DNA from: Escherichia coli
Lineage (GTDB): Bacteria; Pseudomonadota; Gammaproteobacteria; Enterobacterales; Enterobacteriaceae
Length of the DNA stretch: 64,000 nucleotides
NCBI RefSeq assembly: GCF_024298765.1
Contig: NZ_CP101210.1
Direction: 5' to 3' (one strand)
Below the pieces are notes generated by a model. That model saw only the letters and a program-made list of their open reading frames with translations. It was not told where the DNA came from and made no database searches. This document shows positions 14,932-14,970 of the stretch, in pieces (within the stretch, counting starts at the first letter, position 1; the number at the start of each line of letters is the position of its first letter). A program made the translations under genes and the position numbers.

Positions 14932-14970
14932 AATGAATAATCATCCATATAAATTGAATTTTAATTCATT
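14932..14970 (+). promoter_or_regulatory. Tandem ARG boxes (ArgR operator) in the argI promoter
   Basis: aatgaataatcatccata and aattgaattttaattcat, two 18-bp TGAAT...ATTCA-type palindromes 3 bp apart, about 30 bp upstream of the argI ATG. Confidence 0.6.

Follow-up and report, generated by a model that had tools for sequence, protein, structure and literature searches.

Tandem ARG boxes upstream of argI in an Escherichia coli genome

Two 18-bp palindrome-like segments lie side by side at 14932-14970, directly ahead of a gene for ornithine carbamoyltransferase, and the locus raises the question of whether they form the operator through which the repressor ArgR controls argI. The segments are part of a 64,000-nucleotide stretch of E. 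coli DNA, which was analysed as a whole and is called the window here. A first-pass annotation of the window had read them as tandem ARG boxes. The results described below point very strongly to the argI operator, in which paired 18-bp ARG boxes would overlap the argI promoter.

Layout of the locus

The locus is composed of the following elements, which are listed by position in the window.

14418-14834, minus strand: divergent 138-aa ORF, RraB
14927-14932, plus strand: putative -35 hexamer TTGCAA, its last base being the first base of box 1 (from conservation)
14932-14949, no strand: ARG box 1, promoter-distal, AATGAATAATCATCCATA
14933-14980, plus strand: 15-codon ORF (MNNHPYKLNFNSLRR) starting with the ATG at 14933-14935 inside box 1, truncated ArgL homologue
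14948-14955, plus strand: putative -10 region, running from the end of box 1 through the spacer into the first bases of box 2 (from conservation)
14950-14952, no strand: spacer TAA between the ARG boxes, 3 bp
14953-14970, no strand: ARG box 2, promoter-proximal, ATTGAATTTTAATTCATT
14985-14990, plus strand: Shine-Dalgarno sequence AGGAGG, 5 nt before the ATG (sequence reading)
14996-16009, plus strand: argI, the regulated gene, anabolic ornithine carbamoyltransferase of 337 aa (ORF, NCBIfam and synteny)

The site reads AATGAATAATCATCCATA-TAA-ATTGAATTTTAATTCATT and takes the form of two 18-bp imperfect palindromes with a 3-bp gap, exactly as had been annotated. The boxes are placed 21 bp apart from centre to centre and cover 39 bp overall, two helical turns, and the 3′ end of the tandem site lies 25 nt upstream of the argI ATG (14996). 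The first-pass annotation described both boxes as palindromes of the TGAAT...ATTCA type and box 2 as nearly perfectly symmetric. For box 2 this description stands, as its TGAAT and ATTCA arms are perfect and its core TGAATTTTAATTCA is symmetric at 12 of 14 positions. It does not hold for box 1, which is the weaker of the two, carries the right arm ATCCA and a C within the central W tract, and makes no clean palindrome. Compared with the ARG-box consensus TNTGAATWWWWATTCANW (Maas 1994, as quoted in PMC4865122 and PMC5291005), box 2 matches 15 of the 16 specified positions, and box 1 matches 13 on the plus strand and 14 on the minus strand. The canonical E. coli ArgR operator is built as 18+3+18 (PMC6640053; PMC4381063), and the proposed operator arrangement thus agrees with both the published consensus and the published design.

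The placement of the site upstream of argI is confirmed by the gene product and by synteny. The product is matched by NCBIfam NF009213 at 752 bits (cut-off 559) and by TIGR00658 at 467 bits. A 1.7-kb stretch covering the locus is found between rraB and yjgL in 5425 of 5426 complete E. coli genomes, which is the location of argI (b4254) in K-12 MG1655, with synteny to rraB, yjgL and pyrBI. The gene at 14996-16009 bears the PGAP label “argF” in most E. coli genomes, yet it is argI by synteny, and the label is a naming trap in automated comparisons. The enzyme has 337 aa here versus 334 in K-12, the difference being a 5-bp insertion ahead of the K-12 stop that adds Leu-Asn-Asn (16000-16009) and that the K-12 argI coding region does not have. 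Strain MB06101, the other E. coli record noted, is annotated with the same gene length of 1014 nt. The yjgL-like ORF on the other side (16138-17778, minus strand) encodes 546 aa versus 604 aa in K-12. It contains a repeat at 17082-17223 with 7.9 copies of an 18-bp unit that encodes LNNSQE-like units, and given this repeat the length of the ORF is probably variable between strains.

An Rfam search found no RNA family at the argI operator locus and no match near the operator. Elsewhere in the window, matches above the gathering score were obtained for a magnesium riboswitch, a tRNA, two naRNA4, ES036 and STnc450, ES239, and Ysr276, at 25683-25798 (minus), 1945-2026 (minus), 35965-36042 (minus), 42207-42285 (minus), 51269-51448 (plus), 56035-56157 (minus) and 8041-8235 (minus).

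The site had also been annotated as overlapping the likely argI promoter. Two blocks, TTGCA(A) and CATATAAA (14946-14953), are likely the -35 and -10 elements of this promoter, an assignment that follows from their conservation and spacing. In 78 distinct sequences, TTGCA (14927-14931) is invariant and 14932 is kept in 77, while every column of the CATATAAA block is either invariant or kept in 77. The -10 hexamer could be TATAAA (14948-14953, spacer 15) or TAAATT (14950-14955, spacer 17), and transcription of argI would start near 14960-14963. Since the last base of TTGCAA doubles as the first base of box 1 and TATAAA/TAAATT bridges the two boxes, both putative promoter elements are covered by the site. 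A simple sigma-70 promoter scanner called no promoter at the operator, with the hexamers reaching 8/12 at the 17-bp spacer. The overlap itself is in line with the literature, which describes ARG boxes that overlap the -10 and/or the -35 element in the operators of arginine biosynthesis (PMC6640053), and this part of the annotation is upheld for a promoter that remains a putative one.

Conservation of the site in Enterobacteriaceae

In K-12 MG1655, the same 39 bp precede the same gene between the same neighbours. The 161-bp rraB-argI intergenic region shows a single difference from K-12 MG1655, at 14907, which is outside of the operator. Because of this identity and of established knowledge, the site can be linked to the classical footprinting work on the argI operator, which is reportedly that of Charlier et al. 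1992 and Tian et al. 1992, cited in PMC6640053 and PMC4381063. The suggested comparison with the published operator is therefore favourable, with the consensus, the 18+3+18 design and the K-12 sequence all matched. A full-text literature search for the box sequences gave no match, and argI is not named in the main text of the ChIP-exo paper. Among 5431 E. coli records, the operator is identical in 4538 and differs by one base in 748 more; the sampled variants T14941C and C14945A both fall within the already degenerate part of box 1.

E. coli records vary too little at the site to provide a footprint, and a search of other genera was used instead. One genome per species was searched, which yielded 80 orthologous loci. 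They represent about 25 enterobacterial genera, including Escherichia, Citrobacter, Salmonella, Klebsiella, Enterobacter, Kosakonia, Kluyvera, Raoultella, Atlantibacter, Leclercia and Lelliottia. The tandem site is present in all 80 loci, where the best 39-mer within 300 bp upstream scores 27.7-39.1 bits with the ArgR matrix described below, versus a maximum of -1.1 bits in the coding-region controls and 16.8 bits in the shuffled ones. Its position relative to the ATG is nearly fixed, with a start at -66 in 74 loci, at -64 in five (all Escherichia) and at -65 in one.

The individual columns were analysed in the 78 distinct sequences, i.e. the window's own and those of the orthologues. The left arm of box 1, TG[A/C]AT, is conserved, and the variable columns of this box lie in its centre and right arm. 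The spacer columns TAA are invariant in 77-78 of the 78 sequences. In box 2, every column of the core TGAATTTTAATTCA is invariant or kept in 77 of 78, and only box positions 2, 17 and 18 vary. Taken together, the variable columns (14933, 14936, 14940-14942, 14944-14945, 14954, 14969 and 14970) correspond to the N and W positions of the consensus plus the right arm of box 1, which is weak. The mean majority fraction is 0.91-0.96 in the boxes versus 0.83 over the intergenic region, which is a modest contrast. A separate block in the rraB-argI intergenic region, TTGCCTCCACCTTTG (14889-14903), is nearly invariant across the roughly 25 genera and could be part of the rraB promoter or of an upstream start.

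It is very unlikely that the block is conserved for the core promoter and/or for the start of an ArgL-like upstream ORF and not for ArgR binding. This explanation draws on the invariance of the TTGCA and CATATAAA blocks and on the ORF that begins at the box 1 ATG, which has 31 codons in 63 of the 80 loci. The K-12 argF record contains a corresponding small ORF, argL (b4766), which starts with the ATG inside ARG box 1; ArgL is a detected protein, and its translation lowers argF expression (bioRxiv 10.1101/511675). However, the invariant core TGAATTTTAATTCA of box 2 lies downstream of the -10 region, where it is no promoter element. Within the small ORF, codon positions 1 and 2 vary and the wobble positions are invariant, the opposite of coding constraint, which places the constraint on the DNA site and leads to the rejection of the small ORF as the cause of the conservation. 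The part of the peptide that is encoded downstream of the operator diverges freely, and E. coli argI retains an intact operator despite the truncation of the ORF to 15 codons. Additionally, an independently derived ArgR matrix fits the site.

Specificity of the ArgR match

An exact search for the 14-mer TGAATWWWWATTCA gives a single hit in the 64-kb window versus 0.02 expected. The tandem consensus, which was searched as TNTGAATWWWWATTCANW written twice with a 3-bp gap and three mismatches allowed, has its sole match in the window at 14932-14970 and none in 100 shuffles. Single 14-mers with up to two mismatches are not enriched in the window (four found versus 3.1 expected), and the degenerate single-box search therefore gave way to tests based on the tandem pattern and on the matrix. 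The signal therefore resides in the perfect box 2 and the fixed tandem spacing; ARG box 1 alone would not convince.

For the matrix, an unseeded expectation-maximisation motif search with a width of 39 was applied to nine K-12 upstream regions regulated by ArgR (carAB, argA, argECBH, argD, argG, argR, artJ, artP and hisJ), from which argI and argF were left out. The motif converged de novo on TGTGAATTTTTATGCAAA-AAA-AATGCATAAATATTCAAT, i.e. the 18+3+18 ArgR motif. With this matrix the argI operator scores 34.0 bits, which exceeds the window mean by about 6 standard deviations, and 27.8 bits when read on the opposite strand. The maximum reached by 200 random 64-kb sequences is 23.1 bits, and 10,000 randomisations of the intergenic region (GC 0.39) reach 22.7 bits at most, so that the site passes the weight-matrix check that had been suggested for it. 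The training operators score 5.8-35.6 bits in a leave-one-out procedure, and the argI site is on a par with the highest of these. When the boxes are scored singly, box 2 is first in the window with 20.9 bits and box 1 is third with 15.7 bits. The pair score at the operator is 36.6 bits with the 3-bp spacer versus 15.5 or less with any other spacer length between 0 and 8 bp.

The two highest matrix matches in the 64 kb are a site at the pyrL promoter (20554-20592) and, after it, the argI operator. The matrix is specific, as the sole site in the window that scores higher than argI lies in the pyrL promoter, for which ChIP-chip binding of ArgR and PurR has been published (PMC4299497; PMC3159470).

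A role of the argI site mainly for another regulator of AT-rich palindromes, with ArgR as a secondary ligand, is highly improbable. This idea has its basis in the co-occupation of further ArgR targets by Lrp, PurR, IHF and others. Against it, no other motif was found or needed, the conserved and variable columns track the ARG-box consensus position by position, and the locus codes for an arginine biosynthetic enzyme. A chance origin of the palindromes in an AT-rich promoter region (GC 0.39), without a specific protein partner, would suit the chance rate of single 14-mers with up to two mismatches, but it is effectively refuted by the 0 of 10,000 local randomisations that reach the observed score, by the absence of tandem-consensus matches from 100 shuffles and by the near-constant ATG distance (-64 to -66) in 80 of 80 orthologous loci.

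The pyrL site merits a description of its own. It consists of a second tandem ARG-box pair, TTTGAATTAAAAGTCAAA-ATA-TATGCATTTTTATTTTCT, which occupies 20554-20592 on the minus strand and precedes the pyrL leader of pyrBI by about 90 nt, and it is adjoined by a PurR-box-like sequence, AAACCGTTTGCG (20594-20609). Its score of 38.0 bits is the best ArgR matrix score in the window. Exact copies of this rare allele are present in 69 of 4822 E. coli records. The allele of K-12 reaches only 24.7 bits. This combination of a rare high-scoring allele here and a lower-scoring one in K-12 suggests that ArgR control of pyrBI may differ between lineages.

Related operators and the proposed control of argI

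Among the closest known counterparts of the site is the operator of K-12 argF, a paralogous ornithine carbamoyltransferase gene in the cryptic prophage CP4-6, next to IS1. It shares the 18+3+18 design and the box 2 core and is identical to the argI operator at 34 of 39 positions. The differences are found at positions 11, 13 and 14 of box 1 and positions 2 and 17 of box 2, all of which are N or already degenerate. The argF leader is two bases longer, which puts the operator start at -66 versus -64 in argI, and its ArgL upstream ORF has the full 31 codons versus 15 in argI here. In Enterobacter species the operator has exactly the sequence found in K-12 argF, and a single residue separates the K-12 ArgL peptide from its counterpart in E. 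vonholyi. The argF control region bears less resemblance to that of E. coli argI. This likeness to Enterobacter fits a foreign origin of the IS1-flanked argF.

The operators of carAB P2, argECBH, argA, argD, argG, artJ, artP, hisJ and lrp are likewise composed of two 18-bp imperfect palindromes 3 bp apart, and most E. coli ArgR operators overlap promoter elements (PMC6640053). They differ from the argI operator in their box sequences and in their position relative to the promoter, and box 2 of argI is closer to the consensus than most of them. The AhrC/ArgR operators of Bacillus and Streptomyces are bound by a homologous repressor family and contain a related 18-bp palindromic ARG box, for which CATGAATAAAAATKCAAK and AWTGCATRWWYATGCAWT are given as consensus in PMC4865122 and PMC5291005. 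They are distinguished by other consensus details, box number and spacing, and some of them activate catabolic operons.

Whether the 15-codon ORF belongs to the argI system is uncertain. It owes its length to a 2-bp leader deletion in E. coli argI, and it starts upstream of the putative transcription start of argI. A transcript that begins upstream of the operator could couple ArgR occupancy to translation of the ArgL-type ORF, in which case a translational brake would have disappeared from E. coli argI and persisted in argF and the other genera; this scenario is unlikely.

Repression of argI in E. coli depends on arginine and on argR. The argI operator itself is already known and ordinary, a textbook site that has been studied in E. 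coli K-12 since the 1980s. It is of little importance as a discovery, and its value is that of a positive control, in which a reading of the sequence alone gave a real regulatory site with exact coordinates. For its mode of action, ArgR binding, DNA bending and steric exclusion are carried over from the literature. One ArgR hexamer binds two 18-bp boxes 3 bp apart cooperatively on one helix face and introduces a bend of about 70-90 degrees, and the binding of ArgR and of RNA polymerase is mutually exclusive (PMC6640053; PMC6245113; PMC4381063). At argI, the hexameric, arginine-bound ArgR would bind cooperatively to the pair of boxes from a single face of the helix when arginine is plentiful. 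The bound repressor would bend the DNA and exclude RNA polymerase from the -35 and -10 elements, and the synthesis of ornithine carbamoyltransferase would be switched off. Once arginine drops, ArgR would depart and the argI promoter would fire.
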